24,000 nt of DNA from Planctomycetota bacterium (GCA_046047955.1 JBJOHC010000109.1:676-24675), one strand, 5' to 3'. Numbered from the stretch's first letter, positions 3 to 22,346 are shown. Translations and numbers: made by a program. The notes: generated by a model from the sequence alone, not told the origin.

Positions 3-1235
3 GTGGAAGCGGAAGGACGCCGCGAAGTGACGGACGACGCGACGCCCGCGGGTGCGGATGCGCCCGAGGATCCCGATTCCGCCGCGTGGGTCGATGTCGG
101 CGCCGCCGCCGAACTCGCGGCGCGTCCTCTGCAGCAGGTCCTCCTCGACGGGCGGACGCGCGTCGCGCTCAGCTGCGTCGACGGCGTCTTCGCCGCGATC
201 TCGGGCGTCTGCAACCATGTCGGCGGGCCGCTCGGCGAGGGCCGCCTCGAGCGCGTCGCGGGCGAGGACTACATCGTCTGCCCGTGGCACTACTGGAAGT
301 TCCACCGCGCGACGGGCGTCGGCGAGCCCGGATACGAGGCCGACTGCGTGCCGTCGCACGCGGTGCGCGTCGAGGATGGCCGCGTGCTCGTCGCGCGCAG
401 GCCCTCGACCGCGCGACGGAAGTCGAAGCACGCGCCGCACCCGCTCGCGCGCGAGCCGCGGCGCGAACCGGGCCCCGTGCGCGTCCTCGGCATCTCGACG
501 ACCGCCATGACCGAAGGCGAGCCCCGCTACTCGACGAGCGACGATCTCCTCGACGCGGCGCTCGCGGGCGCGGCCGACCTTGGCTGCGAGACGCGGCTCC
601 TGCGCGTGCGCGACCTCGCGTTCCGCGCGTGCGAGGGCTTCTACTCGAAGTCCGCGCGCGCGTGCACCTGGCCCTGCTCGATCACGCAGATGGACCCGAC
701 CGACCAGATGGACCGGGTCTACGAGGGCGTCGTCCACTGGGCCGATGTCATCCTCGTCGCGACGCCGATCCGCTGGGGCAACGCGAGCAGCCTCTACTAC
801 CGCATGGTCGAGCGGATGAACTGCATCCAGAACCAGGAGACCGTCGCGGGGCGCCACCTCATGCGCAACAAGGCCGCGGGCTTCATCATCACGGGCGGGC
901 AGGACAACGTGCAGGCCGTCGCCGGGCAGATGATGGGCTTCTTCGGCGAGATCGGCTGCCAGTTCCCGCAGTTCCCCTACATCGCGCATTCGCGCGGATG
1001 GAGCGCGGAGGACATGGAGAACAACCAGCGCGCGGTGCGGCGGAGCGCGTTTCTCCACGACGGCGCCCGCTCGCTCGCGGCGCGGTGCGTCGAGATGGCG
1101 AAGCTCCTCCTCTCGGGCACGCTCGCACCCGAGCCGCCCGCACGCGGTGGGCGCAAGGCGCACGCCGACGCGACGGCGACGGGCGACGGCGAAGCCGACG
1201 GCGCGCGGATGGTGCGCATCCACGACGGGCGGTGA
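3..1235 (+). CDS. Rieske [2Fe-2S] domain fused to a flavodoxin-like NAD(P)H-dependent FMN reductase domain (start uncertain, may extend past the left window edge)
   Basis: ORF 3..1235. The N-terminal part carries both Rieske ligand boxes (CNHVGGPL and CPWHYWKF). The C-terminal ~230 aa (VRVLGISTT...ADVILVATPIRWGNASS...AGFIITGGQDN) look like the flavodoxin-like FMN-reductase fold. Codons end in G/C almost throughout. TGA at 1233-1235. The first codon is GTG at position 3, so the true start could lie upstream of the window. Confidence 0.8.
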   Translation: MEAEGRREVTDDATPAGADAPEDPDSAAWVDVGAAAELAARPLQQVLLDGRTRVALSCVDGVFAAISGVCNHVGGPLGEGRLERVAGEDYIVCPWHYWKFHRATGVGEPGYEADCVPSHAVRVEDGRVLVARRPSTARRKSKHAPHPLAREPRREPGPVRVLGISTTAMTEGEPRYSTSDDLLDAALAGAADLGCETRLLRVRDLAFRACEGFYSKSARACTWPCSITQMDPTDQMDRVYEGVVHWADVILVATPIRWGNASSLYYRMVERMNCIQNQETVAGRHLMRNKAAGFIITGGQDNVQAVAGQMMGFFGEIGCQFPQFPYIAHSRGWSAEDMENNQRAVRRSAFLHDGARSLAARCVEMAKLLLSGTLAPEPPARGGRKAHADATATGDGEADGARMVRIHDGR

Positions 1236-1321: not shown

Positions 1322-2749
1322 TCAGTCGCGCCGCCGCTCGAGCAGTTCGTAGAGCAGGTTGTCGACGAAGAGCGGCTGCTCGACCATCTCGATGTGCTCG
1401 TAGGGCAGGAAGACGACCGAGTCGAAGTCGAGCCAGTACTCGGCGGGCGCCGCGGCATCCTTCGCGACCGCCGCATCGGCGAGCGCCGAGGCGCGCGTCA
1501 CCTCGCCGTCGCCGGGAGCGCGCGAGCGGACGCGCATCGTTCCGTCCGCCGCGATTTCGGTCACATCGTCGGTCGCGATCGCGTCGCCCGTGATGAGGAC
1601 GCGCCGCAGATGCGCGGGCGGCGTCGACGGACGCGCGAGCGCCTCGTGAAACCGCTCGGCCGCGTCGAGGCACTTCGCGAGGTGGTCGCGCGCGATCGCG
1701 CGGCGCTCCGCGGCATCGTCCACCTCGGGCAGGAGCCACGCGAGGTACTCGGCCTGATCCTCGGCGAGCAGCCCCCAGCCGATCGACTCCCAGGTCGCCG
1801 CGTCGTGCATCGCGCGCGGCGCCCCCGCCTCGTCGACGATCCGCGCGAGGCGGTCGGGCGGCAGCAGCTGGTACATCGCGGGCAGCGTGCCGATCACCGC
1901 GGGGCGGTAGTACGGGAAGAGCGGGTTCAGGTCCCAGCCGTCGCGAAGCCGCGGGAGCGCGCGCACCGAGCCGCCGCTCGGCGTCCCGACGAGGATGAAG
2001 GTGCGGATGTTGCGCGCGCCCTCCCAGGTCGGCGCGGGCATGGGACCTTCATCGGGGAGCGCCTGCGCGCCGTAGCGGAGGTACCACTGCCCGAGCAGCC
2101 CGCCCATCGAATGGCAGACGAGATCGACCTTCACCTCGGCGTCGGGCGCGAGGCCGCGCTGCGCGCGCGCGATCCCCTGCAGTTCGCGGATGCGCGCATC
2201 GAGCGCCGCCGCCTGCGTCGAGACCTCGCGGCGCCAGTCGTAGGGGTTCTGCCAGCAGGTGTAGTGAAGACCGCCGTAGCGGACGGCGTCGGGGTCGGGC
2301 GGCGCGAGCGCGGTGTCGCGGTACTTGCCCGCGGCGAGCGCCTCGAGAAGTCCCGCGTACGCGCGGATCTCGAGCCCGCGCAGGAGCCCGAGGTCGAGCG
2401 TGACCGTGTCGAGCGCCTCGGGCGCGGTCAGACCGTCGCCGAGGGCGTTGAGCGATTTCCCGCGTTCCATCGGCAGCGCGAAGACGCGCGCGTCGGCGGG
2501 GTTGTCGGGATCGATCGCACCGAACTCGAAGGCGCCCCAGACATCGCGGCCCGACGCGGGGTCGTAGAGCTTCGAACCGAGAATGCCGGGCACGACGACG
2601 ACGGGCGTGCGCGTCGTCGCGGTCGCGCGGGCGCGCGCGCCGTAGATCGTCTCGAGTTCGATGCGACGGTCGCCACCGCAGGCGCAGGCGAGGAACGCGG
2701 CGGCGACCGCGCCCACGACGCGAACGATGGAGGGGGATCGGCGGTTCAT
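1322..2749 (-). CDS. LCAT/PGAP1-like alpha/beta-hydrolase (lipase/acyltransferase), secreted, possible lipoprotein
   Basis: Lies within ORF 1322..3112. I place the start at the internal ATG 2749-2747 (MNRRSPSIVRVVGAVAAAFLACACGG), which gives a signal peptide with a possible lipobox (FLAC). The upstream 121 codons are Arg-rich junk that overlaps the preceding gene. PVVVVPGILGSKLY is the LCAT-family N-terminal motif and VCHSMGG is a GxSxG nucleophile elbow. The start overlaps the upstream stop as ATGA. Confidence 0.85.
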   Translation of the reverse strand: MNRRSPSIVRVVGAVAAAFLACACGGDRRIELETIYGARARATATTRTPVVVVPGILGSKLYDPASGRDVWGAFEFGAIDPDNPADARVFALPMERGKSLNALGDGLTAPEALDTVTLDLGLLRGLEIRAYAGLLEALAAGKYRDTALAPPDPDAVRYGGLHYTCWQNPYDWRREVSTQAAALDARIRELQGIARAQRGLAPDAEVKVDLVCHSMGGLLGQWYLRYGAQALPDEGPMPAPTWEGARNIRTFILVGTPSGGSVRALPRLRDGWDLNPLFPYYRPAVIGTLPAMYQLLPPDRLARIVDEAGAPRAMHDAATWESIGWGLLAEDQAEYLAWLLPEVDDAAERRAIARDHLAKCLDAAERFHEALARPSTPPAHLRRVLITGDAIATDDVTEIAADGTMRVRSRAPGDGEVTRASALADAAVAKDAAAPAEYWLDFDSVVFLPYEHIEMVEQPLFVDNLLYELLERRRD

Positions 2750-3636
2750 GGATGCGAGGAGGGCTGCGAGGAGGGATGCGAGGAGGGCTGCACGGACGGC
2801 GGTTCGGCCGGCGCGCGATCGGGTGCCGCCACGACGGCGGCGCCCGCAGGCTCGCCGAAGCGCTCGATATGGAAATAGGCGAGATCGTCGCGCAGCTCGA
2901 CCTTCCCGTGCGCGACGAGGGGCCGACCGATCCAGGGCGCGAGCGCCTCGAACCCGATCGCGCCGCCGTCGGGGGCGACCGCGAGCGCGCGCCGCCACGA
3001 GCCGTCGGGTGCGCGGCAGACGAAGGCGGGCGGAATGCCGCCGCGGATGCAGAGCGTCGCGCAGTCGCGGTGCGCCTTGCCGTCGCCGGGCTTCATCACG
3101 CCGAGCCAGCACTTGCTGTCGACGATCTCGCCCGCGAGCGCGAGTGCACCGAGATCGACCGCGGGCGCGGAGGGAGGAACGCGCATCGTGGCACCGGGCG
3201 CGACGACTTCGACCGCGTCACCCTCGGCGAGCTCGATCATGCGCTGCCCGCTCCGCTCGATGAGGTAGCCGCGCACGCGCGCCTGCAGCACGCCGTCGGC
3301 GGGCACCCCTCCCTTCGCGAGGAGCGCCTCGAGCCGCGCACCCGCGCCGAGCTTTCCCATCTCGACGAGCAGGACGCGCCGCACGACGCCGTCGTCGCCC
3401 ATCGTCCGGAGCACCGGATGCGGCGCGCGAACGATCTCGCCCTCGAGGACGATCTCGCGTCCCGTCTCCCAGACGCCGAATCCCGGACGACGCTGCCCGA
3501 CCGCGAAGGTCGCCGCGAGCGCGAGGAGCGCCGCCGCCGCGACGGGCACGGCGAGCGCGAGGAAGCGCCTGTCGGCGCGCGGCAACGGCAGGTATCCGAC
3601 GTAGAACGCGCGGCCGCCGCCGCCCGCGCCGCTCAT
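2746..3636 (-). CDS. Single-pass membrane-anchored protein of unknown function with a Cys/His cluster and a PSSH/PSSQ repeat tail
   Basis: Lies within ORF 2746..4212. Start placed at ATG 3636-3634 (MSGAGGGGRAFYVGYLPLPRADRRFLALAVPVAAAALLALAATFAV), giving one N-terminal TM helix. The 192 upstream codons are Arg-rich and overlap the preceding real gene. Cluster: SKCWLGVMKPGDGKAHRDCATLCIRGGIPPAFVC. Both ends are ATGA overlaps with neighbouring genes. I do not recognise a named family. Confidence 0.7.
   Translation of the reverse strand: MSGAGGGGRAFYVGYLPLPRADRRFLALAVPVAAAALLALAATFAVGQRRPGFGVWETGREIVLEGEIVRAPHPVLRTMGDDGVVRRVLLVEMGKLGAGARLEALLAKGGVPADGVLQARVRGYLIERSGQRMIELAEGDAVEVVAPGATMRVPPSAPAVDLGALALAGEIVDSKCWLGVMKPGDGKAHRDCATLCIRGGIPPAFVCRAPDGSWRRALAVAPDGGAIGFEALAPWIGRPLVAHGKVELRDDLAYFHIERFGEPAGAAVVAAPDRAPAEPPSVQPSSHPSSQPSSHP
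2751..2798 (-). repeat. In-frame 12-nt tandem repeat (about 4 copies) encoding a (Q/H)PSS tail
   Basis: Plus strand reads gatgcgaggagg / gctgcgaggagg / gatgcgaggagg / gctgcacggacg. The minus-strand sense is CCCUCCUCGCA x3, encoding ...PSVQPSSHPSSQPSSHP* immediately before the lipase ATG. Confidence 0.9.
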
Positions 3637-4709
3637 GCGCCACCTCCCGCCCGCGCGCGGCACGGTGGAACGGGCGTGCCGGGCGCCTTCGCCTGCGGAT
3701 GGACGAGGATCGTCCGTCCCTCGATGCGCAGTTCGTAGGTGGGGATCCGCTCGGTGAAGGGCGGCGGAGACTGCCCGCAATCGGCGAGGTACTGGTAGCC
3801 GTGCCACGGGCAGGTCACGCAGCCATCGACGATGCGTCCCTCGGCGAGCGGCCCGCCCTGGTGCGCGCACACGCCCGAGATCGCCGAGTACGCGTCGCCC
3901 GAACGGAACACGGCGACCGTGCGCGCGCGACCGTCCGCGGGATCGGCGACGCGCACGCGCCGCGCGGCGCCGTCGTCGATCTCGTCGATGGCGCAGACGC
4001 GCACCCAGCCGTCGGCCTCGGCGCGCGCGACCGCGCGGTCGCGCGCGCGCTCGACGAATCCGACCGCGACATGGAGACCGACGACCCACGCGACGAGCGC
4101 GCCGGCCGCCCAGCCGTACACGGGCGACACCGCGTCCTGCAGCACGCCGAACCCGACATGCGCGACGAGGAGCGCGAACGCGAGGAAGACCAGCTGATGC
4201 AGCGACTTCCACGCGCGCGGAGAGAGGTTCCGCAGCCAGAAGTCATGGCTCGTCGCCGCCATGGCGAAGAGGATGAGGAGCGCGGCGAGCCCGAGCGGCT
4301 GGAACGGCAGCTGCGAGAGTCCGTCGAAGGGCCACCCGCTCGCGAGGATGCTCGCGAACGGATCGAGGACGCCGAAGCCGTGGTACCAGAGCGTCGCGAG
4401 CGCCCCGTGCGCGAACGCCATGAGGAACATCGTGACGCCGAGATGGCGGCGGTTGTAGAGGACGGGCGCGAGCCGCGGTGAGAGGCGCGCGAGCGGTCCG
4501 ATCGAGAGGATGACGACGAGGAGCGCGATCGCGCCCGTCCCGAACGCGCGGATCGCGAGGATGAGTTCGCTCACCTCCTCGCCCGCGGGCATCGTCGCGA
4601 CCGAGAGGGCGATGAAGGCCGCGACCCACCCGACGGCGATCGCGGCCACCAGCATGTCGTAGAACCGCTTGTGGCGGTTCCACTGGACGGCGCGATAGGC
4701 GACGCTCAT
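3633..4709 (-). CDS. Ferric-reductase-like transmembrane domain (six TM, two His pairs) fused to a C-terminal Rieske [2Fe-2S] domain
   Basis: ORF 3633..4709. Six hydrophobic helices. His pairs HLGVTMFLMAFAH (helix 3) and HQLVFLAFALLVAH (helix 5) resemble the heme-b ligands of the FRD/NOX/YedZ superfamily. The C-terminal domain has Rieske boxes CAHQGGPL and CPWHGYQY. A positively charged N-terminus plus an even TM count places the Rieske domain in the cytoplasm. Confidence 0.85.
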   Translation of the reverse strand: MSVAYRAVQWNRHKRFYDMLVAAIAVGWVAAFIALSVATMPAGEEVSELILAIRAFGTGAIALLVVILSIGPLARLSPRLAPVLYNRRHLGVTMFLMAFAHGALATLWYHGFGVLDPFASILASGWPFDGLSQLPFQPLGLAALLILFAMAATSHDFWLRNLSPRAWKSLHQLVFLAFALLVAHVGFGVLQDAVSPVYGWAAGALVAWVVGLHVAVGFVERARDRAVARAEADGWVRVCAIDEIDDGAARRVRVADPADGRARTVAVFRSGDAYSAISGVCAHQGGPLAEGRIVDGCVTCPWHGYQYLADCGQSPPPFTERIPTYELRIEGRTILVHPQAKAPGTPVPPCRARAGGGA

Positions 4710-5212
4710 CGCGCGGCCTCGCTCGGCGGCGCGGGGAGGCGCAGGGCGTCGTCCGCGGCCGCGGGTCGCGCGGGCTTCACGAGGAGCGCGACCGCGAGCG
4801 CCGCGAGCGCGAGCGGACCGAGGACGAGCCAGAGGACGAGGGCGCGCGCCCGCAACGCCTCGGAACGCGGCATCCAGGACGCCACCGCCTCGCCCGCGAC
4901 TTCAGGCGCCTCGCCGCGCGCCGAGCGCGCCACCGCCCGCCGCCATTTCGCGAGCATCCATGGCCAGAGGAGGACCGCGCCGGGCAGGATGAGAAGGCGG
5001 AATCCCCAGGTCGCGTGGCGCGCGACGGGGTCGATCGCCGCCGCACCGCGGACGGCGAACGGGATGGCGAACAGGAGGCCGATTCCCGCGTAGAGCGCCA
5101 CCCCCGCCTCGATCGCGAGGACCGCGGGAGGGACGAGCGAGGGCGCCGCGTCTGCGAGCGTACTTCGGAGGAGGATGGGGACGACCGCGGAGCCGCTCGG
5201 CACGCGGGGCAC
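4706..5212 (-). CDS. Small integral membrane protein (about 3 TM), unknown function; first gene of the operon
   Basis: ORF 4706..5212 with GTG start. Hydrophobic segments: AVLAIEAGVALYAGIGLLFAIPFAV, WGFRLLILPGAVLLWPWML, ALVLWLVLGPLALAALAVALLV. Its stop overlaps the next start as ATGA (4706-4709). Start codon choice is uncertain. Confidence 0.6.
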   Translation of the reverse strand: MPRVPSGSAVVPILLRSTLADAAPSLVPPAVLAIEAGVALYAGIGLLFAIPFAVRGAAAIDPVARHATWGFRLLILPGAVLLWPWMLAKWRRAVARSARGEAPEVAGEAVASWMPRSEALRARALVLWLVLGPLALAALAVALLVKPARPAAADDALRLPAPPSEAAR

Positions 5213-5356
5213 GATACCGTCAGTCCTACCCCCGCGAACTGCGTCGCGACCGCACCTTCAGTATCCTCCCCCGCGGCCTCCGACGCCCGTCGCGCGGGTC
5301 CGCACCGCCGAGCACAGCCGCCGCCTCGCGGCAGACGCCCTCCGTCGCCCACGCCC

Positions 5357-5884
5357 ATGCCGAACGATCCCCGCCGCGCACTCGCCCGCTCGCTCGAGAC
5401 CCTTGCCGCGCTCGCCGCGAAGTGCGACGACGCGCAGTACGCGGGCGGCCTCGCCTACGGATTCCACAGCCCGCTCGGCGCCCACTTCCGCCACTGCATC
5501 GATCATGTCGACGCGCTCCTGCACGGGATCGGGTCGGGCGAGATCTCGTACGACCGCCGCGAACGCGGCACCGCGATCGAGAAGGACCGCGCCGCGGGAC
5601 TCGCCGCCGCCGCCGACCGCGCCGCGCGCGTCCTCGCCGTCGACGACGCGTCGCTCACCGCCGCGCTCACCGTCCGCGCGATGGTCGCACCCGACGCGCC
5701 CGAGGCGGCGTTCCATTCGTCGGTCGAGCGGGAGTTCCTCTATGTCTTCCACCACACCGTGCACCACACGGCCCTGATGTCGGCGCAGGCGACGAACATG
5801 GGCGTCCAGCCCGACCCGAAGGCGGGTCGGGCGCCCGCGACGCTCGCGAACGACGCCGCGGGCGCGCCCGCGGCGCGCAGCTGA
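5357..5884 (+). CDS. DinB-superfamily (DinB_2-like) metal-binding four-helix-bundle protein
   Basis: Lies within ORF 5015..5884. Start placed at the in-frame ATG 5357 (MPNDPRRALARSLETLA). His-rich motifs typical of DinB proteins are present: HFRHCIDHVDALLH and FHHTVHHTALM. The 114 upstream codons are Arg/Asp-rich and overlap the divergent operon. Confidence 0.75.
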   Translation: MPNDPRRALARSLETLAALAAKCDDAQYAGGLAYGFHSPLGAHFRHCIDHVDALLHGIGSGEISYDRRERGTAIEKDRAAGLAAAADRAARVLAVDDASLTAALTVRAMVAPDAPEAAFHSSVEREFLYVFHHTVHHTALMSAQATNMGVQPDPKAGRAPATLANDAAGAPAARS

Positions 5885-5951
5885 CAGCGTTCGTCGGGTC
5901 GTGACCGCCGACGCGCGAACCGCTCCGCATCGCCCGCCCCCGCCCGGATCC

Positions 5952-6707
5952 ATGTGCACGCTCACGATCATCCCCGCCACCGAGGCGTCGGGCGGCGTCT
6001 GGCGACTCGCCTTCAACCGCGACGAGCAGCGGACGCGCGCCGCAGGCACCGAGCCGCGCCTCGTCGATGTCGGCGGTCGGCGCGCCGCGCATCCGGTCGA
6101 CGCGACCGCGGGCGGCACCTGGATCGCCACGACCGACGCGGGACTCGCCCTCGCGACGCTGAACCGGAACGAACCCGGACTTCCCGACGGACGCGCGCCG
6201 GGCGCGAGCCGCGGCGCCCTCATCCTCGCGCTCCTCGAGGCGGAGACGCTCGACGACGCCGCGGCGCGCGCCGCGACCGCCGCGACCGCCGTCACGCGCG
6301 GATTCCGTCTCGTCGCAACCGACGGCGCGCGCGTCCTCGAGGTCACGGGCGGCGGCGACGCGCCCGCCACGATCGCGATCGAACCGCTCGTCCGGCCCTT
6401 CCTGCGCGCCTCGAGCGGACTCGGCGATGCGCTCGTCGGCCCGCCGCGCGCCGAACTCTTCGCGGCGACCGTCCTCCGCGCCCCGCCCGACGCCTGGCCC
6501 GCCGCGCAGACCGCCTTCCACGACCACGCGTGGAGCGATCGCCGGCACCTTTCGGTGCGGATGGATCGCGACGAGGCGCGCACGGTGAGCCGCACCTTCA
6601 TCGAGGTCGCGCGCGACGCGATCCGCATGCGCCACGCGAACCGCACGGACCGTGCGCCCGACGCGCGATTCGATCCCGAGCACACGATCGATCTCCCGCG
6701 CCGATGA
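5952..6707 (+). CDS. NRDE-family protein (TANGO2-like; N-terminal Met-Cys)
   Basis: Lies within ORF 5901..6707. Start placed at ATG 5952, giving MCTLTIIP... followed by the family-defining RLAFNRDE motif. The alternative start is GTG 5901. The stop overlaps the next gene's start as ATGA (6704-6707). Confidence 0.8.
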   Translation: MCTLTIIPATEASGGVWRLAFNRDEQRTRAAGTEPRLVDVGGRRAAHPVDATAGGTWIATTDAGLALATLNRNEPGLPDGRAPGASRGALILALLEAETLDDAAARAATAATAVTRGFRLVATDGARVLEVTGGGDAPATIAIEPLVRPFLRASSGLGDALVGPPRAELFAATVLRAPPDAWPAAQTAFHDHAWSDRRHLSVRMDRDEARTVSRTFIEVARDAIRMRHANRTDRAPDARFDPEHTIDLPRR

Positions 6708-8410
6708 CGACGCCCGCGACCATCCTCGCGCTCGCCGCCACCGAGCTTCCGGGCGGCTTCGCGATCGGCGCCGACATGAGCCCCTGGCTCCAGGCCGCGC
6801 TCCTCATGCTCGGCACCTTCGTCCTCGAGGACACCACGGCGATCGCCGCGGGACTCCTCGCCCACGCGGGGACGGTTCCACTCTCCGTCGCGATCGTGGG
6901 CACGGGCGTCGGCATCTTCCTCGGCGACCTCGGCCTCTACCTCCTCGGCGCGCTCGCCGCGCGCGGCGCGCACGGCACGGGCTGGATCCGAAGGCGCCTC
7001 CCCGAGCGGCAGCTCGATCGCGTGCGCGGATGGTTCGCGGGCGGGACCTGGAAGGCGATTCTTCTCTCGCGGATCCTTTCGGGCACGCGGCTTCCCGTCT
7101 ATCTCGGCGCCGGGTTCGTCGGCGCGGGGTTCGGTCGGTTCGCCCTCTGGACCTTCGTCGCGGTCCTCGTCTGGACGCCGCTCGTGGTCGGCGGCACGGC
7201 ATGGATCGGAGGTTCGGTGCTCGCCGCGGCCGAGCGCGCGATCGGGCCACACTGGTCGGTCTGGATCGTCGCGCTGGCCGCGCTCGTCGTCGCGGTCGCG
7301 ATCCTCCGCCGCGCCTGGACCCGCCGGCGCGGCTGGCGCATCGCCTTCGAGCGCGCGCAGCGCTTCGAATTCTGGCCGAACTGGGCGATCTACGGCCCGC
7401 TCGCGCCCTTCTATCTCGTGCAATCCGCGCGGCATGGCGGCCTCCGCAGCCTCACGGCGGCGAACCCCTGCTGGCCCGACGGCGGCATGGTGGGCGAGAG
7501 CAAGCAGGCGGGACTCGACGCCTTCGACCCCGCGTTCGTCGCGCCGAGCTTTCTCGTCGAGGTCGACGGCGAACGCATCGGCAGCGAGGCGATCGAGGCC
7601 GCGTGCGCCCGACTCGCGAGCGAGGGCTGGCACGCCCCCGACGACTCGGGCACCTGGACCCGCCCCGTCGTCGTCAAGCCCGACGCGGGACAGCGCGGCT
7701 TCGGAGTCCGCATCGCACGGTCCGAACCTGCGTTCCGCGAGGCGCTCGCCGCCTCGCGCGCGGACATGGTGGTCCAGCGTCACGCGGCGGGCGAGATCGA
7801 GGTCGGCCTCTTCGTGATCCGCCGTCCCGGCCGTCCACCGGAACTCCTCTCGATCGGCGAGAAGCGGCTGCCGCACGCGACCGGCGACGGTCGTACGCCG
7901 CTGGGCGAACTCATCCGCCGCGACCCGCGCCTGCGGCTCCAGGAGCATGTGTTCCTCGAGCGTCACGCGCACGAACTCGACCGCGTCCTCGCGGAAGGCG
8001 AGCGACTTCGGCTTTCGCACGCGGCGAACCACTCGCAGGGATGTCTCTTCCTCTCGGGCGAGCACCTGCGCACGCCGGCCCTCGAAGCCTGGGCGCTCGC
8101 GGCGATGACGGGCGCTCGCGGCTTCGACTACGGACGACTCGACGTCGTCTTCCCCGACGCCGACGCCTGCCGTCGCGGCGTGGGCGGCGCCATCCTCGAG
8201 GCGAACGGCGTCCTCAGCGAATCGATCGACATGTACGACCCCGCGCTCGGAGCCTTCGGCGCGTGGCGCATCATGCGAAGGCACTGGTCGATCGCCTTCG
8301 AGATCGGGCGCGCGAACCGCACCGCGGGTGCGCGCGGGATGGGCGTTCGCGAGTTCCTCGGGCGCTGGCGCGCCTGGCGTCGGCGGGCAGACGGGTCGAT
8401 CGCGCGCTAG
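6704..8410 (+). CDS. DedA/VTT-type membrane domain fused to an ATP-grasp carboxylate-amine ligase domain
   Basis: Lies within ORF 5954..8410; in-frame ATG at 6704 (MTTPATILALAA). The N-terminal ~210 aa are polytopic with DedA-like signatures (FVLEDTTAIAAGLL; LSRILSGTRLPVYLGAG). The C-terminal ~330 aa have ATP-grasp features (RPVVVKPDAGQRGFGVRIA; MVVQRHAAGEIEVGLFVI; ANHSQGC...GRLDV) and resemble cyanophycin-synthetase/RimK-type ligases. Confidence 0.8.
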   Translation: MTTPATILALAATELPGGFAIGADMSPWLQAALLMLGTFVLEDTTAIAAGLLAHAGTVPLSVAIVGTGVGIFLGDLGLYLLGALAARGAHGTGWIRRRLPERQLDRVRGWFAGGTWKAILLSRILSGTRLPVYLGAGFVGAGFGRFALWTFVAVLVWTPLVVGGTAWIGGSVLAAAERAIGPHWSVWIVALAALVVAVAILRRAWTRRRGWRIAFERAQRFEFWPNWAIYGPLAPFYLVQSARHGGLRSLTAANPCWPDGGMVGESKQAGLDAFDPAFVAPSFLVEVDGERIGSEAIEAACARLASEGWHAPDDSGTWTRPVVVKPDAGQRGFGVRIARSEPAFREALAASRADMVVQRHAAGEIEVGLFVIRRPGRPPELLSIGEKRLPHATGDGRTPLGELIRRDPRLRLQEHVFLERHAHELDRVLAEGERLRLSHAANHSQGCLFLSGEHLRTPALEAWALAAMTGARGFDYGRLDVVFPDADACRRGVGGAILEANGVLSESIDMYDPALGAFGAWRIMRRHWSIAFEIGRANRTAGARGMGVREFLGRWRAWRRRADGSIAR

Positions 8411-8655
8411 CGGTCGCCGATCTGGAAGTGTCGGCTCCACCGCGACTTGACGAATGCACTCCTCGAGGGCACCGCGCCGAATCGGCCGCCACCATCCCTC
8501 CCGCGCACCCGCCGAACCGTTTGGATTCGGCTCATTTTCCCCTTGCACGCGCTATTCCGCGGACTACCTTCCTCCCCGTCAGTCTCAGGCGGGCACGGCC
8601 TGGATCTGTTTCCCGGCACCGTTCTGGACATGGCACAACCCGTTGGAGGATGGCT

Positions 8656-10746
8656 ATGCGCGGTGTGATGACCCTCGGCGCCGGAGTGGCGCTCGTCGGT
8701 TCGATGCTCGTGACGGCGGCGGCAAGCGCCCAGTGCACCATCGACCCGAACCCGAACTTCGTGGCGATCGACGGCGGCTGCCCCGTCGCCGGCGTCGCCG
8801 ACCCGAACGGCGGATGCAATGTCGTGCCGAACGCCTTCCAGGCGACGGGCGACCTTTCCGCCTCGAACCTCTCGTTCACCATCGGCGGCACCTGCGGCCA
8901 GGATCCGGTCGCCGGCTCGCGCGACATCGACTGGTTCTCGTTCACCGTCACCGACGCGTGCTTCGTGAACATCTCGATCGCGATGACCTTCCCCGACGGC
9001 TCGCCCTCGACGCGCACGATCGCGTTCGCCGGCGAGTTCAACGGCGACGGCACGCCGAACTGCGACAGCGTCTACGGATTCGCGTTCGCCGCGTGCCCCG
9101 CGGCGTTCCCCGAGTTCTTCGCGCAGCCCGGCACCTACATGTGCATCATCACCACCGACTTCGCGGCCGGCGGCGGACTCCCCTGCGAGTCGCCCTACAC
9201 CGCGACGGTGACGGGTCGTCTCCCCCAGTACACCGAGTGCGGCGCGCCCGGCACGGGCAACTGCGGCATCGTCAACGCCGCCACCCCCGGCTGCGAGGAT
9301 GTCGCCTGCTGCGAGACCGTCTGCACGGTCGACCCGCTCTGCTGCATCATCGGCTGGGACACCCAGTGCGCCACGCAGGCGCAGCTCCCGACCGCGGCCG
9401 GCGGATGCGGCGTCTTCGTCTACAACTGCCAGCCCGGCGCGGGCGCGCCCGCGAACGACTGCGCGACCGCCGCGCCCGTCATCAACCTCGACGAGACCGT
9501 CGCGTGGAACAACGCGAACGCGTCGAACGACGGTCCGAACACGGGCCAGTGCGGCGCCAACGTCCGCAAGGACGTGTGGTTCATCGCCCAGGCGCCCGCC
9601 GACGGCAACATGATCGTCATCGCGAACAGCCCCGGCCAGGACATCGTCCTCTCGGCCTACAACCTCGGCACCTCGCCGACGGTCGACGGCTCGCAGCTCG
9701 CGAACAACTTCGTCGGCTGCCTCGACAACGCGGGCATCGGCGGCGAGGCGACCACGCTCCCGGGCGTCGTCGCGGGCAACTACTACCTCTGGCGGATCGG
9801 CGAGTGGGATGACCCGACGAACACGGGCGTGCCCGGCGCGGGCGATGTCACCATCACCGTCGAGCGCGTCGTCTACGACACGGGCATCCACACCGCGATC
9901 TGCAACGCTGGCACCGCGACCAACCTCGGTCTCTCGAGCGGTCCGGTCGCGGCGACCACGCCGCAGCGCTGGCTCGCGGTTCCCTTCTCGGTGTCCGACC
10001 CCGACGGCGCGGGCCCCGAGACGAGCTGGCGGCTCACGCTCATGCAGCCCGAAGGCTTCGTCCCCGCGGGCGCGGTCAACGAGAAGCTGAACTGGATCAT
10101 CTGGAGCCGCAACGGCTTCGTCGCCCCGAACTACGCGACCGACCAGATCGCGAGCGGCCAGATCGACTTCCCCGCGCTCGGCACCAACGGCGAGGCGAAC
10201 ATCCCGATGGATCTCGTCCTCGAGGCGGGCGACTACTACCTGACCGTCTTCGCGTCGGCGGTGGGCAATCCCTGCACCCCGAGCGACGGCCAGCTGACGA
10301 CCTCGAACTTCGCGTGGTTCATCGGCGCCCCGGGCGGCATCGTGCCGACCGACGGCACCAGCTTCTACTGCCTCCGCTCGGCGACGCAGCAGGGCACGGG
10401 TCCCGCGACCGAAGTGGTCAACGCGGGCACCACGACCCCCTGCTCGAACCCGGCGGGCGCCGGCTTCGCCAACTACTCGCTGCCTGCGCAGTACCAGGTC
10501 TGCGACGGCGACTCGCCCGCGAGCAAGCTGTACTCGGCCGCGCTCCACATCCTCGGCAACCCCGAGCCCGCGCCGAAGAATCCCTGCCCGACCGACTTCG
10601 ACGGCAACGGAACGACCGACGCCGCCGACCTCGCCGCCCTCCTGGGTGGCTGGGGCCAGCCGGGTGCGACCGATCTCGACGGCAACGGCACGACCGACGC
10701 CGCCGACCTCGCCGCGCTCCTCGGCTCGTGGGGCGCCTGCCCGTAA
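8656..10746 (+). CDS. Secreted multidomain protein: PPC-like modules, a Cys-rich module, and two C-terminal dockerin-like repeats
   Basis: Only the C-terminal half of the 1364-aa ORF 6652..10746 is real. GGAGGA at 8645-8650 sits 5 nt upstream of ATG 8656 (alternative start ATG 8650). Signal peptide MRGVMTLGAGVALVGSMLVTAAASA|QC. DIDWFSFTV and KDVWFIAQ resemble the DxDWYxF signature of pre-peptidase C-terminal domains. The C-terminus carries DFDGNGTTDAADLAALLGGWG and DLDGNGTTDAADLAALLGSWG. Confidence 0.85.
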   Translation: MRGVMTLGAGVALVGSMLVTAAASAQCTIDPNPNFVAIDGGCPVAGVADPNGGCNVVPNAFQATGDLSASNLSFTIGGTCGQDPVAGSRDIDWFSFTVTDACFVNISIAMTFPDGSPSTRTIAFAGEFNGDGTPNCDSVYGFAFAACPAAFPEFFAQPGTYMCIITTDFAAGGGLPCESPYTATVTGRLPQYTECGAPGTGNCGIVNAATPGCEDVACCETVCTVDPLCCIIGWDTQCATQAQLPTAAGGCGVFVYNCQPGAGAPANDCATAAPVINLDETVAWNNANASNDGPNTGQCGANVRKDVWFIAQAPADGNMIVIANSPGQDIVLSAYNLGTSPTVDGSQLANNFVGCLDNAGIGGEATTLPGVVAGNYYLWRIGEWDDPTNTGVPGAGDVTITVERVVYDTGIHTAICNAGTATNLGLSSGPVAATTPQRWLAVPFSVSDPDGAGPETSWRLTLMQPEGFVPAGAVNEKLNWIIWSRNGFVAPNYATDQIASGQIDFPALGTNGEANIPMDLVLEAGDYYLTVFASAVGNPCTPSDGQLTTSNFAWFIGAPGGIVPTDGTSFYCLRSATQQGTGPATEVVNAGTTTPCSNPAGAGFANYSLPAQYQVCDGDSPASKLYSAALHILGNPEPAPKNPCPTDFDGNGTTDAADLAALLGGWGQPGATDLDGNGTTDAADLAALLGSWGACP
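10594..10734 (+). repeat. Two near-identical 63-nt coding repeats (dockerin / EF-hand-like DxDGNGTTD...LLGxWG units), period 78 nt
   Basis: 10594-10656 and 10672-10734 align with only a few substitutions at the DNA level. Confidence 0.9.
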
Positions 10747-12436: not shown

Positions 12437-12480
12437 CTCACTTCACCGTACTGCTCACTTCACCGTACTGCTCACTTCAC
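12437..12480. repeat. 17-bp tandem repeat CTCACTTCACCGTACTG, about 2.6 copies, between convergent genes
   Basis: Copies at 12437-12453 and 12454-12470, plus a partial copy at 12471-12480. The last copy contains the sulfotransferase stop codon (tca at 12472-12474, minus strand). Confidence 0.9.
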
Positions 12481-13794
12481 GGGTCGCAGCGACTGCTCGC
12501 GCGCGACGTACGGCGCCATCGCACGCTCGACCTCGTCGCGCGAGAGCCCGAACTCCTCGACCGCATAGTGGTGCGCGCCGTGGCGTCCCTGCGGGTGCGC
12601 CGCGAGGTACGCGCGCACCGAGGCCGCGTTGGCGTCACTCCAGTCGAGACCGAGCGTTCCGTAGACCCGCTCGAGCGCGGCCGTCGGATCGGCGACGAGT
12701 TCGCGGTAGTGGAGCCGCGCGACGCGCCCGTCGAGAAGCGCCGCATCCTCGCGCGTCTGCCGCGCATCCGCCTCGGCCCAGCGCGCGACGATCCCGAGGA
12801 CGTCGCTCCCGATCAACGCGGGGTCGACCGCATCCGACCCGGTCGTCCGCAGCGCGTGGAGGAGGCTCGCGGTCGACGCGACGACCTCGGCCGCATCGCG
12901 ATAGGTGACGACGAAGCGCGCACGCGGACAGAGCCGCGCGATCAGCGCGACATGACCCGCGTGCAGCGGGCACTTGAGGAGCCAGCGCCGGGAGTCCCCG
13001 GGCTCCGAGAGGTGCGCGATCGCGCCGAGATACCCGCGATAGACCCGCGACCAGTCCTCCGGACCGCGTGCCGCGAGCCACTCGAGGTACGACGGCACCG
13101 CGTATCCGATCGGATACGCCTCCGAGACGAACCAGCTCTGCAGGAGCCAGAGGCACTCCTCGGGTCCGTCGGCGTCGATGTCGTGGACCGAGCGAAGGTG
13201 CGGCGCGAGCGCATCGATGTTCTGCTTCGCGCGCGTCGCAGCGGCGCGGCGAACCGCCTCGCTCGAGCGCTCGCCATGCCCTGCGCCTGGGAGACGAATC
13301 GGCGACATCGACTCGAAGAGCCGCAGCGGCCGCAGCACAGGGTCGAGCGACATCAGGTGGTGGAGGATCGTCGTCCCCGTCCTCGGCAGGCCGACGAGGA
13401 AGATGGGGCCTTCGCCGGGAGGCACCGCGCACCCCGCCGGTGGCTCCGCCCCACCCCACGCGATCTCGAGGCTGCGGAGGTTCACGAGCCCGCGGAGGAT
13501 GCTCGCCGCGGCCATCGCGCGCCCCACGGCGTTGAGCGCGGCCTCCTCGCGCAGCGAGCGGACGAGGATCGCGAGCGGCTCGCGGAACCGCGTGTCGACG
13601 AACGGACCGCCGAGATCGGCGACCGCCGCGGCCTCGAGTTCGTCCGCGTCGAGCCGCGGCGCGAGGTGCAGCCAGTCCGCCGCCGCGGCCGCGAAGCGCG
13701 CAATCACGAAAGAGATGGGACGCACGGGTGCCGTTCGAAGGCCGTCGGATTCCATGGACGCCAAGCGTAGCAAGGGCGGAGAGGTCCGCCGCAT
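12472..13794 (-). CDS. PAPS-dependent sulfotransferase family protein (Sulfotransfer_3-like)
   Basis: ORF 12472..13794. FLVGLPRTGTTILHHLMS is the 5'-phosphosulfate-binding loop (PRxGTT). The remainder is consistent with cytosolic-type sulfotransferases. An alternative start is ATG at 13755 (MESDG). Confidence 0.8.
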   Translation of the reverse strand: MRRTSPPLLRLASMESDGLRTAPVRPISFVIARFAAAAADWLHLAPRLDADELEAAAVADLGGPFVDTRFREPLAILVRSLREEAALNAVGRAMAAASILRGLVNLRSLEIAWGGAEPPAGCAVPPGEGPIFLVGLPRTGTTILHHLMSLDPVLRPLRLFESMSPIRLPGAGHGERSSEAVRRAAATRAKQNIDALAPHLRSVHDIDADGPEECLWLLQSWFVSEAYPIGYAVPSYLEWLAARGPEDWSRVYRGYLGAIAHLSEPGDSRRWLLKCPLHAGHVALIARLCPRARFVVTYRDAAEVVASTASLLHALRTTGSDAVDPALIGSDVLGIVARWAEADARQTREDAALLDGRVARLHYRELVADPTAALERVYGTLGLDWSDANAASVRAYLAAHPQGRHGAHHYAVEEFGLSRDEVERAMAPYVAREQSLRPVK

Positions 13795-13889
13795 CGCCAG
13801 CGCACGCTCGGGGGGGCCGGGCCCGCGTCGATCTCCATCGGACGAGACGCCCCCACAGGTATCCTGCGTCGGCTCGAACGGCCACCACC

Positions 13890-16172
13890 ATGCGCGAATC
13901 CCTCCCCCTCCTGCTCGCGTTCCTTCCGCTTCTCGCCCCGTCCGCGCACGCGTCCCGCGGGGCCGCCGACACCGTCACCGTCGACCGCGACGACATCGAG
14001 GTGCGCGCGTCGTGCACGCTCGCCTTCCCCGCGACGCCCGTCGCCGACGCGGACGGCGACGGCGTCGTCCAGGTCTTCGGCCGCGAGGACGGCGCGCGCA
14101 TCGTCGTCGACCTCGGCGGGGCGCGGCTCGTCGGCGGCGCGGGCGCGCCCGAGTCGCACGCGGGGTTCGGCATCGTCGTGCGCGGTCGGAACGTGACCAT
14201 CCGGAACGGCGCGATCGCGGGCTTCAAGGTCGCGCTCCACGGCGAGGATTGCGACGGCCTCGTCGTCGAGGATCTCGTCACGAGCGACAACTACGCGCAG
14301 CGCCTCCGCTCGACGCCCGCCGCCGAGGACGGCACCGACTGGCTCTTCCCCCACCGGAACGACGGCGGCGAATGGATCCGCGAGCATGGCGCGGGCGTCT
14401 CGGTGCGGCGCGCGAAGGGCGCGGTCATCCGCCGCGTCACGAGTCACCGCACGCAGAACGGCATCGTCCTCGACCGCGTCTCGGGCTCCGAGATCTACGA
14501 CAACGACTGCTCGTTCCTCTCGGGCTGGGGCATCGCGATGTGGCGCGCGTCGTCGAACACCGTGTGCCGCAACAGCCTCGACTTCTGCGTGCGCGGCTAC
14601 TCGCACGGCGTCTACAACCGCGGGCAGGACTCGGCGGGGCTCCTCATGTTCGAGCAGTGCTCCGACAATGTGATCGCCCTCAACAGCATCACCCATGGCG
14701 GCGACGGCGTCTTCGGCTTCGCGGGACGCGAGGCGCTCGGCGAAGGTGCGGGAGGCGACGCGGGCGAGGGCGCGGGCCCCGACTCGAGCCGCGGCAAGGG
14801 CTGCAACGGCAACTGGTTCATCGGCAACGACCTCTCGTTCGCCGCCGCGCACGGTCTCGAGATGACCTTCAGCTTCGGCAACCGCATCGTGCGGAACCGC
14901 TTCGAATCGAACGCGATCTGCGGGATCTGGGGCGGCTACGCGCGCGACACGCTCGTCGCCTCGAACGACTTCCGCAGGAACGGAGGCATGGGCTACGGCG
15001 GCGAGCGCGGCGGCGTGAACATGGAGCACGCGCAGCGCACCGTCGTCGCGACGAACACCTTCCGCGAGGACAGGGTCGGCGTGCGCCTCTGGTCGGACGC
15101 CGACGAGGGGATCCGCCGGCTTCCCTGGGGCATCGCGAACGGGATGGACGCCTCGGACAACCGCATCGCGGGCAACGAGTTCTCGCGCGTCGAGGCGCCG
15201 ATCGAGCTGATCGACGCGCGCGCGACCGTGGTCGAGGCGAACGGCTTCGACGACTGCCCCGCCGAGGTCGTCGAGCGCGGCGGCGAGCCCGCGCGCATGG
15301 CCGAGCGCCTCGGCGACCTGCCGTCGTGGGAGGCCGAGGCCGACCGCATCGTCGCGGCGCTGCCCGGGGAGCGCGCCGCCATCGGTCTGCGCGAGGAGCT
15401 CCGCGGCCGCGAGAGGATCATCATGCGCGAGCACGCGCCCTACGCCTGGGACGGACCGCTCGTCGTCCCCGCGAACGCGAGCCAGTCGCGGGCGGCCTTC
15501 CGCGCGCTCGGCTTCGCCCGCATCGCGGGCACCGATGTGATCGGCCGCGGGCCGCTTCTCGTCGGCGTCGCGGCCGACGGGGTCACGGTCGAGGTCGGAT
15601 CGCAGGACACGGGCTTCGTGACGCCGTTCACCGTGCAGGTGCGCGGGGAGGGCCGCGGCGAGAAGGCGGTCGCGCGGGGCGTGCTCGCGCCGGGCGCCTG
15701 GCGCACGCGGATCTTCGCGCTCGACGAGACGCCCGAGGGCGCGGCGCCCGTCGCGCTCGCGGCCGTTCCCGATCCCGACGCCTTCCGCGCGCGCGCGGCG
15801 CTCGAGACGCGCGAATTCGTCCTGCGCGAGATCGATTTCGACTTCGCGAACGCGGGCCCCTCGCAGGCCGTCCCCGACCCCGATGTCGAGCGCCTCGCCT
15901 TCGGCCGCGACCGCTTCGGCGTCGTCGCCGAGACGACGCTCGCGTTCCAGCCGGGCCGCTGGCGGATCGTCACCGAGTCGGACGACGGCGTCCGCCTCCT
16001 CGTCGACGGCGCCGTCGCGATCGAGCGCTGGAACATCCACGGCCCCACGCGGGACGCGTACGAACTCGTCGTTCCCGAGCGGCGCGAGGTGCCGCTGCGA
16101 CTCGAGTACTTCGAGAACGACGGCTTCGCGAGGCTCCGGCTGCGATTCGAGCATCTCGGCAAGGCGGGCTGA
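13890..16172 (+). CDS. Secreted right-handed parallel beta-helix repeat protein with a C-terminal PA14-like domain
   Basis: Lies within ORF 13728..16172; in-frame ATG 13890 gives the signal peptide MRESLPLLLAFLPLLAPSAHA. There are many ~22-aa Asn/Gly-turn repeats (IRNGAIAGF, IYDNDCSF, VCRNSLDF, VIALNSITHGGDGV, WFIGNDLSF, IVRNRFESN, LVASNDFRRN, VVATNTFRED, IAGNEFS). The C-terminus (WRIVTESDDGVRLLVDGAVAIERWNIHGP...LRLEYFENDGFARLRLRF) matches the PA14 pattern. Confidence 0.8.
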   Translation: MRESLPLLLAFLPLLAPSAHASRGAADTVTVDRDDIEVRASCTLAFPATPVADADGDGVVQVFGREDGARIVVDLGGARLVGGAGAPESHAGFGIVVRGRNVTIRNGAIAGFKVALHGEDCDGLVVEDLVTSDNYAQRLRSTPAAEDGTDWLFPHRNDGGEWIREHGAGVSVRRAKGAVIRRVTSHRTQNGIVLDRVSGSEIYDNDCSFLSGWGIAMWRASSNTVCRNSLDFCVRGYSHGVYNRGQDSAGLLMFEQCSDNVIALNSITHGGDGVFGFAGREALGEGAGGDAGEGAGPDSSRGKGCNGNWFIGNDLSFAAAHGLEMTFSFGNRIVRNRFESNAICGIWGGYARDTLVASNDFRRNGGMGYGGERGGVNMEHAQRTVVATNTFREDRVGVRLWSDADEGIRRLPWGIANGMDASDNRIAGNEFSRVEAPIELIDARATVVEANGFDDCPAEVVERGGEPARMAERLGDLPSWEAEADRIVAALPGERAAIGLREELRGRERIIMREHAPYAWDGPLVVPANASQSRAAFRALGFARIAGTDVIGRGPLLVGVAADGVTVEVGSQDTGFVTPFTVQVRGEGRGEKAVARGVLAPGAWRTRIFALDETPEGAAPVALAAVPDPDAFRARAALETREFVLREIDFDFANAGPSQAVPDPDVERLAFGRDRFGVVAETTLAFQPGRWRIVTESDDGVRLLVDGAVAIERWNIHGPTRDAYELVVPERREVPLRLEYFENDGFARLRLRFEHLGKAG

Positions 16173-21176: not shown

Positions 21177-21212
21177 ATCCAACGCCCACGCGCGAGAAAG
21201 GACACGCCTCCC

Positions 21213-22217: not shown

Positions 22218-22240
22218 ACCGCACGCTCCGATCCGCCACG

Positions 22241-22332
22241 CACGACACGCATCCACGACAGGCATCCACGACACTCCCCCCACGACACGCAGCCACGACA
22301 GGCATCCACGACACGCCTCCACGAGAACCGAA
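22241..22332 (+). repeat. C/A-rich 13-nt tandem repeat (CACGACAsGCAyC), 7 copies, organised as a duplicated 40-nt higher-order unit; fills the argF-argG spacer
   Basis: Units start at 22241, 22254, 22267 (14 nt), 22281, 22294, 22307 and 22320. Block 22241-22280 is nearly identical to block 22281-22320. Confidence 0.9.
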
Positions 22333-22346
22333 GGACAACGCACCCG

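Follow-up and report, generated by a model that had tools for sequence, protein, structure and literature searches.

A conserved membrane module pairing an FRD::Rieske protein with a Cys/His protein in a Planctomycetota bacterium: a candidate electron-export system

Positions 1,322 to 5,212 of a 24,000-nucleotide stretch of DNA from a Planctomycetota bacterium (GCA_046047955.1, JBJOHC010000109.1:676-24675; this whole stretch is called the window below) carry four minus-strand genes, g1 to g4. These encode a small membrane protein, a ferric reductase domain (FRD) protein with a C-terminal Rieske domain, a membrane-anchored protein predicted to face the periplasm, and an LCAT-like lipoprotein. 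The feature is real and strongly conserved. Judged from comparison across genomes, its conserved core is A-B-FRD::Rieske-g3, in which A and B are two small membrane subunits, and not the four-gene set; in the window lineage this core is encoded by three genes, with A and B fused as g1. We give slightly better than an even chance to the reading that these four polypeptides together form an inner-membrane complex, and that this complex exports cytoplasmic electrons to periplasmic g3. We infer cofactor binding, the direction of electron flow and the physiological role from gene order, gene fusions, domains, conserved ligands and predicted topology.

Organization of the locus

The ORF (open reading frame) listing places the four genes head to tail on the minus strand, in the order g1-g2-g3-g4, in a window with a G+C content of 72-75%. 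The initial annotation, made from the window sequence, had described four minus-strand genes joined by three ATGA stop/start overlaps, and the minus-strand sequence confirmed this arrangement. At the g1/g2 junction (4709-4706) g1 ends in GCG CGA TGA and g2 starts with ATG AGC; at g2/g3 (3636-3633) the corresponding sequences are GGC GCA TGA and ATG AGC, and at g3/g4 (2749-2746) they are CAT CCA TGA and ATG AAC. The product descriptions given at the time are essentially correct by Pfam and sequence.

g1, 4706..5212, minus strand: 168-aa membrane protein with three hydrophobic segments, a fusion of A and B
g2, 3633..4709, minus strand: 358-aa FRD::Rieske protein (Pfam PF01794 and PF00355)
g3, 2746..3636, minus strand: 296-aa single-pass protein, no Pfam or NCBIfam family
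g4, 1322..2749, minus strand: 475-aa LCAT/PGAP1-like alpha/beta-hydrolase lipoprotein (Pfam LCAT)

The junctions of an 81% identical relative (locus L005; fetched loci are designated by L numbers) have ATGA-type overlaps as well, which supports, for the window lineage, the proposal that the four genes are co-transcribed and translationally coupled. Overlaps of this kind are frequent in GC-rich operons and are weak proof by themselves, so the case against a chance arrangement rests on comparative evidence. No terminators or promoters were called inside the operon by a consensus scan, which is uninformative at 73% GC.

Conservation and distribution of the core

Synteny was assessed in 87 fetched loci, including 80 species-level genomes, using tblastn and all-against-all ORF clustering. 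The order of g2 and g3 was scored only in species-level genome loci with enough upstream sequence (n = 73), and in 73/73 of these the two genes share a strand, with g2 immediately upstream; for this pair, the gene-neighbourhood check suggested with the initial annotation returned a conserved order. The junction between the two genes is overlapping, or a few tens of bases wide, nearly everywhere, including in other phyla, and at least five single chains of about 600-630 aa with the architecture FRD::Rieske::g3 were found (P0167, P0267, P0294, P0312 and P0314). Together, the g2-g3 order, the overlapping junctions in other phyla and the gene fusions point to more than chance. Clustering placed subunit A ahead of g2 in 62/72 loci, and its motif revealed it in 6/7 loci that clustering and tblastn had not settled.

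Protein g1 had been described as a 168-aa protein with three transmembrane (TM) segments. The three hydrophobic segments are present, and the single protein is a fusion of two that are separate in most lineages. Its first ~100 residues correspond to A, a ~75-aa protein with two TM segments and the motif ...IDPxAxxxxxGFRLLIxPGAxxLWPW, and its last third corresponds to B, a ~49-aa protein with one TM segment. A and B are encoded by separate, overlapping genes in most lineages (e.g., L001, L002, L007) and are fused in L004 and in the close clade of the window. Searches of Pfam and NCBIfam returned no match for g1. Its GTG start at 5212 is uncertain, as one public gene call begins 111 nt further in.

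A homology search with g3 returned 275 relatives, every one unnamed and without Pfam domains; the best, from a Planctomycetota metagenome-assembled genome, is 100% identical. Relatives were found in at least 598 species in a scan with one genome per species, mostly Phycisphaerae, with some Alphaproteobacteria, Congregibacter, Bacteroidota and Lentisphaeria. At 50% identity the family amounted to 2,814 clusters in an exhaustive profile search, and 1,293 of these clusters had E≤1e-30. A published description of the module was not found in literature searches on FRD+Rieske, DUF5818, the YHS selenoprotein and the ECF (extracytoplasmic function) sigma context. This agrees with the earlier statement that no named system has such genes, as does the placement of g1 and g3 outside any Pfam or NCBIfam family and of g3 outside any group with a solved relative.

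The FRD::Rieske protein g2

Residues 57-182 of g2 match Ferric_reduct (PF01794) at 47.2 bits (curated cut-off 28 bits), and residues 235-325 match Rieske (PF00355) at 53.4 bits (cut-off 20.3 bits). Both domains are present in 120/120 g2 homologs among the matches listed. Protein g2 has six TM helices, with two His each in TM3 (H89 and H101, 12 residues apart) and TM5 (H171 and H184, 13 residues apart), and each of the four is kept in 78/79 aligned sequences. H155 and H213, near the cytoplasmic face, are kept in 78/79 as well, and the Rieske ligands C281-x-H283 and C300-x2-H303 in 79/79. By its above-cut-off profile match and its His pattern, g2 is a member of the FRD superfamily, with two predicted stacked heme b sites. 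Its C-terminal domain is a Rieske domain and no FAD_binding or NAD_binding match was found in Pfam, so that g2 does not carry the dehydrogenase of NOX and FRE proteins.

An AlphaFold2 (AF2) model of g2 (predicted local distance difference test score, pLDDT, 90; predicted template modeling score, pTM, 0.84) shows six long helices and a beta-rich C-terminal domain. Foldseek comparison of AF2 models against the PDB matched this C-terminal domain to the Rieske ferredoxin CarAc with a TM-score of 0.86, and to CarAc relatives too, and matched the membrane domain to STEAP2 (7tai) with an E value of 4.6e-4. In a PDB sequence profile search, g2 matched Rieske ferredoxins and oxygenases only. The closest Rieske relatives are the electron-shuttle ferredoxins CarAc, BphF and T4moC. 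The two Rieske boxes of g2 are CAHQGGPL and CPWHGYQY, which we take to be of the low-potential ferredoxin type. Rieske proteins of the bc1/b6f type have an extra disulfide-forming Cys in each box (CTHLGC / CPCHGS), are exported by the twin-arginine translocation (Tat) pathway and are extracytoplasmic. With its boxes and a domain predicted to be cytoplasmic, g2 does not fall in this high-potential class.

The topology of g2 and g3 was predicted from charge (Lys/Arg counts per loop and net charge of the flanks). In g2, Lys/Arg counts are 3.1 at the N-terminus, 4.1 in loop 2-3 and 2.7 in loop 4-5, and 0.3-0.7 in the other loops. This distribution predicts an N-in/C-in protein with the Rieske domain in the cytoplasm, H89 and H171 on the cytoplasmic side and H101 and H184 on the periplasmic side. 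The first description of g2, as a six-TM ferric-reductase-like domain with two His pairs and a cytoplasmic Rieske domain, is therefore in agreement with Pfam, with the 78/79 conservation and with the topology.

The Cys/His protein g3

No match to g3 was found in Pfam or NCBIfam, a sequence profile run against the PDB had no hit up to E=10, and Foldseek against the PDB returned none below E 1e-3, with weak OB folds only. DUF5818 was detected by Pfam below threshold in 9/36 family members. The AF2 model (pLDDT 85, pTM 0.76) has a TM helix at residues 20-47 followed by two OB-like beta-barrels predicted to be periplasmic. The Cys and His residues lie on two short helices inside the second barrel, joined by a conserved loop modeled with low confidence. 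The net charge is +1.2 in the N-terminal flank of the helix and -0.9 in the C-terminal flank, which predicts an N-in/C-out orientation; the FRD::Rieske::g3 fusions require the same orientation. Model and charges thus bear out the single N-terminal TM helix and extracytoplasmic domain first proposed for g3.

The site D173-x-K-C176-x-L-G-x-M181-x-P-G-x4-H189-x2-C192-x3-C196 is invariant in 85/85 sequences. The full set of invariant residues is V13, Y15, D173, K175, C176, L178, G179, M181, P183, G184, H189, C192, C196 and P202, of which V13 and Y15 belong to a conserved cytoplasmic FYVGYLP motif ahead of the TM helix. The cluster originally reported, C-x15-C-x3-C-x10-C, is present in the window sequence; its fourth Cys, C207, is kept in only 12/85, and the four-Cys cluster was rejected on this ground. 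The true site is Cys3-His(-Met). It may hold mononuclear Fe or Cu or a structural Zn, or work through redox-active thiols. The TRASH spacing is C-x19-22-C-x3-C. The spacing in g3 is C-x15-C-x3-C and a YHS match was found by Pfam in 0/36 members, so g3 is not assigned to the TRASH/YHS group.

Export of g3 through the Tat pathway was considered and rejected, since RR occurs in 40/85 N-terminal flanks and a Tat-like motif in 13/85. In the absence of a conserved twin-arginine, g3 is probably exported by Sec, and a cytoplasmically assembled Fe-S cluster is unlikely. Separately, g3 of the window ends in a low-complexity tail, PSVQPSSHPSSQPSSHP, which derives from a ~24-nt direct repeat at 2749-2815 (minus strand). 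In the alignment this tail is present only in the closest relatives.

Candidate electron donors

The gene that converges on the operon from the left encodes a second Rieske protein.

3..1235, plus strand, convergent with g4: 410-aa Rieske::NAD(P)H-FMN-reductase fusion (Pfam Rieske and FMN_red)

An orthologue of this gene, ~80% identical, is found in the same place in L004, L009, L091 and L092. Other Rieske fusions stand beside the module elsewhere: a Rieske::GltS-type FMN domain fusion in L001 (2988-4604), and Rieske::pyruvate-oxidase/acetolactate-synthase-like enzymes dependent on thiamine pyrophosphate (TPP) in L035 (3353-5452) and L069 (8821-10854). Further tblastn Rieske hits beside the module were obtained in L075 and L078. 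The four orthologues and these analogous donors support the partnership with the Rieske-flavoprotein at 3-1235 that had been suggested initially, and the 3-1235 protein is a candidate cytoplasmic electron donor. We know of no characterised Rieske-TPP or Rieske-GltS-FMN fusions. Three unrelated dehydrogenase types with an N-terminal Rieske domain beside the same module are most simply read as interchangeable donors. Pyruvate-oxidase chemistry is irreversible, and for this reason we take outward electron flow to be favoured. In ring-hydroxylating dioxygenase systems, Rieske ferredoxins are known to pass electrons to a Rieske cluster.

In the 86-nt gap between the stop of g4 and the end of the convergent gene at 1235, a 7-bp GC-rich hairpin is present at 1283-1304 (GACGACGC...GCGTCGT). 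The hairpin has no T-run and was not called by the consensus terminator scan; it may be a bidirectional terminator.

Regulation and recurrent neighbours

Genes for an ECF sigma factor and/or a ~85-95-aa cytoplasmic, zinc-type (ZAS) anti-sigma factor were found near the module in 19 of the 55 loci with full flanks. Among the loci carrying each, the sigma gene is upstream on the same strand in 18/19 and the anti-sigma gene in 18/18. Pairs occur, for example, in L007 (4688-5598), L022, L058, L064 and L076, and a SpoIIE/PP2C-type phosphatase often lies between the pair and A. The anti-sigma factor has the spacing C-x25-H-x3-C-x2-C, which we take to be RsrA-like, and a weak RsrA hit. The presence of an ECF sigma factor and an RsrA-like anti-sigma factor upstream in about a third of loci suggests stress control.

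Among 79 species-level loci, the recurrent neighbours were DinB_2 (23), TANGO2 (22) and an ATP-grasp-like part (19). All three are present in the window, divergent from the operon.

5015..5884, plus strand, divergent: DinB_2 gene (Pfam DinB_2), real start probably near 5354
5901..6707, plus strand: TANGO2-like gene (Pfam TANGO2, 29.6 bits), probable start near 5952 (MCT motif)
6698..8410, plus strand: VTT/DedA domain (VTT_dom, 41.3 bits) fused to a weakly ATP-grasp-like domain (RimK/ATP-grasp, weak)

The DinB_2 / TANGO2 / VTT trio accompanies the module in about a quarter of loci (e.g., L002, L004, L007, L049, L064, L089). It is divergent in the window (5015-8410), and co-directional and downstream of g3 in L049 and L064. 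In Algisphaera (L089), VTT is fused to an alpha/beta hydrolase, with a PlsC-type acyltransferase and TMEM164 nearby. The role of TANGO2 is disputed, with a Cys N-terminal-nucleophile hydrolase (PMC13044924) and heme trafficking (PMC10470608) both proposed. The predicted M-C-T start of the TANGO2-like protein fits the hydrolase reading over heme trafficking.

A YHS (seleno)protein (NF041384, 118 bits, cut-off 70) is encoded in 19/79 loci (e.g., L004:9007-9576, L002:1841-2755, L089:5033-5497) and is not found in the window. In L004 its gene lies just beyond the Rieske::FMN-reductase gene, a position whose equivalent here falls beyond the left window edge. This Cys/Sec protein is a candidate acceptor of module electrons. 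No universal terminal acceptor gene was found beside g3, the commonest candidates being present in ~24-29% of loci. Ni-SOD, MsrA-MsrB, DoxX and photolyase were each seen near the module as single cases. The neighbourhood as a whole has an oxidative/thiol stress character, and to a lesser degree a lipid-handling one (VTT/DedA fusions, alpha/beta hydrolases, acyltransferase, TMEM164).

Two other regions of the window were noted. At 8647-10746 (plus strand) a ~699-aa secreted protein with a signal peptide and no Pfam match ends in two copies of D-x-D-G-N-G-T-T-D-A-A-D-L-A-A-L-L-G-x-W-G, which are dockerin/EF-hand-like. At 12472-16172 a minus-strand Sulfotransfer_3 gene overlaps the start of a plus-strand gene for an 814-aa NosD/beta-helix + PA14 protein by ~67 nt; start codons in this region are probably over-extended.

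The accessory lipoprotein g4

Protein g4 matches LCAT (PF02450) at 27.9 bits (curated cut-off 21 bits), and its homolog in L067 does so at 40.6 bits. In 10 homologs the HSMGG nucleophile motif, a GxSxG elbow, is invariant and the lipobox Cys is kept throughout, in the variants LLAAC, LSAGC, VSGC, LAGC, LAAC, LTAC and FLAC; the last, found in the window, is off consensus at -3 and -2. The LCAT match and the conservation of the Cys and HSMGG are in line with the LCAT/PGAP1-like hydrolase with signal peptide and possible lipobox in the initial annotation, and g4 is most likely a periplasm-facing lipoprotein hydrolase or acyltransferase.

Homologs of g4 adjoin the module in 8/80 genome loci. Six of these follow g3 (window clade, 69-75% identity), and in two more distant Phycisphaerales the homolog lies ahead of A, with 45-49% identity. 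A metagenome scan seeded with g4, in which the module was looked for within 6 kb, returned 18 loci: four with g4 after g3, four in the order g4-A-B-g2-g3, and ten without the module in that range. The arrangement with g4 before A is represented by L067, L082 and L098-L101. The idea that all four genes form the system is not upheld by these counts, and g4 is, on this distribution, a lineage-specific accessory of the module. The two independent juxtapositions suggest a functional link that is genuine and optional.

Among g4 homologs without the module no pattern of functional context was seen, only arg genes or sigma factors adjoining. Several such homologs are near argC/argR/argB-like genes (L094, L095, L105, L108), and the window itself has an arginine-biosynthesis cluster of argC, argB, argF and argG (Pfam) at 19210-23657 (plus strand), 17 kb from g4. 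Residual synteny, and not a link in function, may account for the proximity of g4 and arg genes.

Proposed mechanism and alternatives

In the proposed mechanism, electrons would first be collected in the cytoplasm by a dehydrogenase that itself carries an N-terminal Rieske domain. In the window this would be the 3-1235 protein, presumably using NAD(P)H, and elsewhere a pyruvate-oxidase-like or GltS-like enzyme. The next carrier would be the Rieske [2Fe-2S] domain of g2, of low potential, from which the electrons would cross the membrane via an inner heme b (H89/H171) and then an outer heme b (H101/H184). They would then reach membrane-anchored g3 in the periplasm, where the Cys3-His(-Met) site may be a terminal redox or metal centre or a relay to a further acceptor. 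Because an ECF sigma factor and an RsrA-like anti-sigma factor directly precede the genes in about a third of lineages, the most likely role would resemble that of MsrPQ: an inducible supply of reducing power to the envelope during oxidative or thiol stress. The g4 lipoprotein would be an add-on in the window clade. The earlier suggestion of a cytoplasmic Rieske domain that feeds a di-heme FRD serving an extracytoplasmic Cys protein is thus supported by synteny, by at least five fusions and by the charge-based topology.

Several observations weigh against electron export to g3. Rieske-fused donors stand beside the module in only ~12 of ~105 loci, and linkage to the sigma/anti-sigma pair is absent from two thirds of loci, including the window. 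No conserved terminal acceptor gene was found, with YHS present in only ~24% of loci. As g3 has no conserved Tat motif, any metal must be acquired in the periplasm, and its site could also be a structural zinc site or a disulfide. This last point underlies an alternative that we regard as unlikely, in which g3 is a structural, assembly or regulatory subunit with zinc or a disulfide, and the outer heme of g2 reduces diffusible O2, a quinone or a metal chelate. Cys3-His is typical of structural zinc, NOX and FRE work without a periplasmic partner, and g3 resembles no known redox protein. However, the invariance also covers M181, K175, D173, P183 and G184 around the site, and the obligate pairing and repeated fusion with g2 exceed the usual behaviour of an assembly factor. 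Inward flow, with a periplasmic donor or quinol oxidised and electrons passing via the Rieske domain to cytoplasmic flavoenzymes, is very improbable. Among the neighbours are an NAD(P)H-FMN reductase and a pyruvate-oxidase-type decarboxylase whose reaction is irreversible; the Rieske domain is presumably of the low-potential ferredoxin type, and to our knowledge every characterised FRD moves electrons outward. Although MsrQ is reported to be able to draw on the quinone pool (PMC12525009), we consider inward flow largely excluded.

A role in metal reduction or handling, which we hold to be rather unlikely, would have g3 bind Cu or Fe while the FRD hemes reduce Cu(II)/Fe(III) for uptake, detoxification or delivery, as a bacterial counterpart of FRE and STEAP. 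Several features are consistent with it: the invariant Met, His and Cys, the aromatic residue adjoining C176, the OB-like fold of g3, the recurrence of YHS-domain proteins as neighbours, and a Sec export without Tat motif that fits periplasmic metal acquisition. The protein may in this respect be like CusF, an OB-fold Cu(I) protein, and like Sco proteins, which use CxxxC and His. FRE and STEAP are ferric/cupric reductases among the FRD relatives (PMC3591440), and the g2 membrane domain matches STEAP2. On the other hand, the 87 loci show no recurrent metal transporter, copper-resistance gene or Fur box, the regulators seen are of the thiol/oxidative ZAS type and not metal sensors, and g3 has no TRASH/YHS Pfam match. 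We consider quite unlikely the reading that all four genes form one integral system and that its exported electrons are used, jointly with the LCAT-like lipoprotein, in a reaction on envelope lipids, such as the repair or removal of oxidised phospholipids. Translational coupling of g4 in the window and close relatives, the two independent arrangements joining its family to the module and the recurrent lipid-related neighbours (VTT/DedA fusions, PlsC-type acyltransferase, TMEM164, TANGO2) argue for it. However, 72/80 module genomes have no g4, 10/18 g4 homologs stand apart from the module, no chemistry connects the Cys3-His site with lipids, and the role of TANGO2 is itself in dispute (PMC10470608 vs PMC13044924).

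Starting from electron export to g3, a broader picture can be drawn, which we put forward tentatively and consider doubtful as a whole. Here g3 would found a new family of periplasmic metallo-reductases, and the complex would be a widespread, hitherto unrecognised route for spending cytoplasmic reducing power in the envelope. It would be fed by swappable Rieske-fused dehydrogenases using NAD(P)H or pyruvate, and switched on in many lineages by the RsrA-like anti-sigma factor under thiol stress. The target, a harmful or scarce species of the envelope, could be Cu(II)/Fe(III), a lipid that has been oxidised or a Cys/Sec protein in its oxidised form, such as the YHS protein. Lipid-handling accessories (the LCAT-like lipoprotein, DedA/VTT fusions) would have been recruited in some clades.

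Comparison with known systems

Electron delivery to the periplasm, which is free of ATP and NAD(P)H, is known for few systems: DsbD, MsrPQ, the Nap/Nrf type and flavinylated systems. The module described here is present in at least 598 species-level genomes of several phyla, with a g3 family of ~2,800 clusters at 50% identity. If electron export to g3 is correct, the module would extend the FRD/NOX superfamily by a novel terminal partner and a novel input logic (Rieske-to-Rieske transfer from swappable dehydrogenases), give a concrete function to the catalogued yet unexplained FRD+Rieske fusion, and hint at a stress regulon of Phycisphaerae and marine proteobacteria that has yet to be studied. 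Algisphaera agarilytica is a cultured host in which the module is testable.

The module resembles MsrPQ (YedYZ) in that a six-TM, putatively heme-b FRD would serve a dedicated extracytoplasmic partner encoded adjacently, with a probable link to stress. MsrQ is also the best NCBIfam match of the g2 membrane domain, at a score (NF003831, 51.3 bits, cut-off 130) that does not make g2 an MsrQ equivalog. Unlike MsrP, a Tat-exported molybdoenzyme, the partner here is a membrane-anchored OB-like Cys3-His protein, and the module differs further in its Rieske domain fused to g2 and its two extra small membrane subunits. No Oxidored_molyb-type gene, as expected for MsrP, was found in annotated loci or in recurrent ORF clusters of the 87 loci. 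With NOX, FRE and STEAP the module shares the FRD fold, the His pairs in TM3 and TM5 and, in the proposed mechanism, outward transfer from a cytoplasmic donor module, STEAP2 being the best structural match. In contrast to these proteins, with their fused domain of the FAD/NADPH or F420 type, g2 has a Rieske domain as its cytoplasmic module, probably supplied by a separate dehydrogenase, and an obligate protein partner in the periplasm.

The MsrQ-like flavinylated systems (Meheust et al. 2021, PMC8238504) are modular in a like manner: a membrane protein with PF01794 works with a cytoplasmic donor that varies and with a redox protein in the periplasm. The module differs from them in having no ApbE or FMN-binding protein: the window genes and the recurrent neighbours were found to include neither an ApbE flavin transferase nor a periplasmic FMN-binding domain. 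In the CarAd/CarAc/CarAa and BphG/F/A chains, as proposed here, a flavoprotein reductase feeds a Rieske centre and then the next centre, and the g2 Rieske domain is nearest to CarAc and BphF. Unlike in those chains, the acceptor in the module would be a di-heme membrane domain, not an oxygenase, and the donor and acceptor Rieske domains are both fused to larger proteins. The domain fusion of g2 itself was catalogued as architecture 'M4', FRD + Rieske (+FMN), among the electron-transfer extensions of bacterial FRDs (Zhang et al. 2013, PMC3591440); that entry covers architecture only, without partners, neighbourhood or function. We read the module as a putative FRD-based electron-export system with three polypeptides (A, B and g3) outside any Pfam or NCBIfam family, and as a relative of MsrQ/NOX-type systems with a new periplasmic partner.

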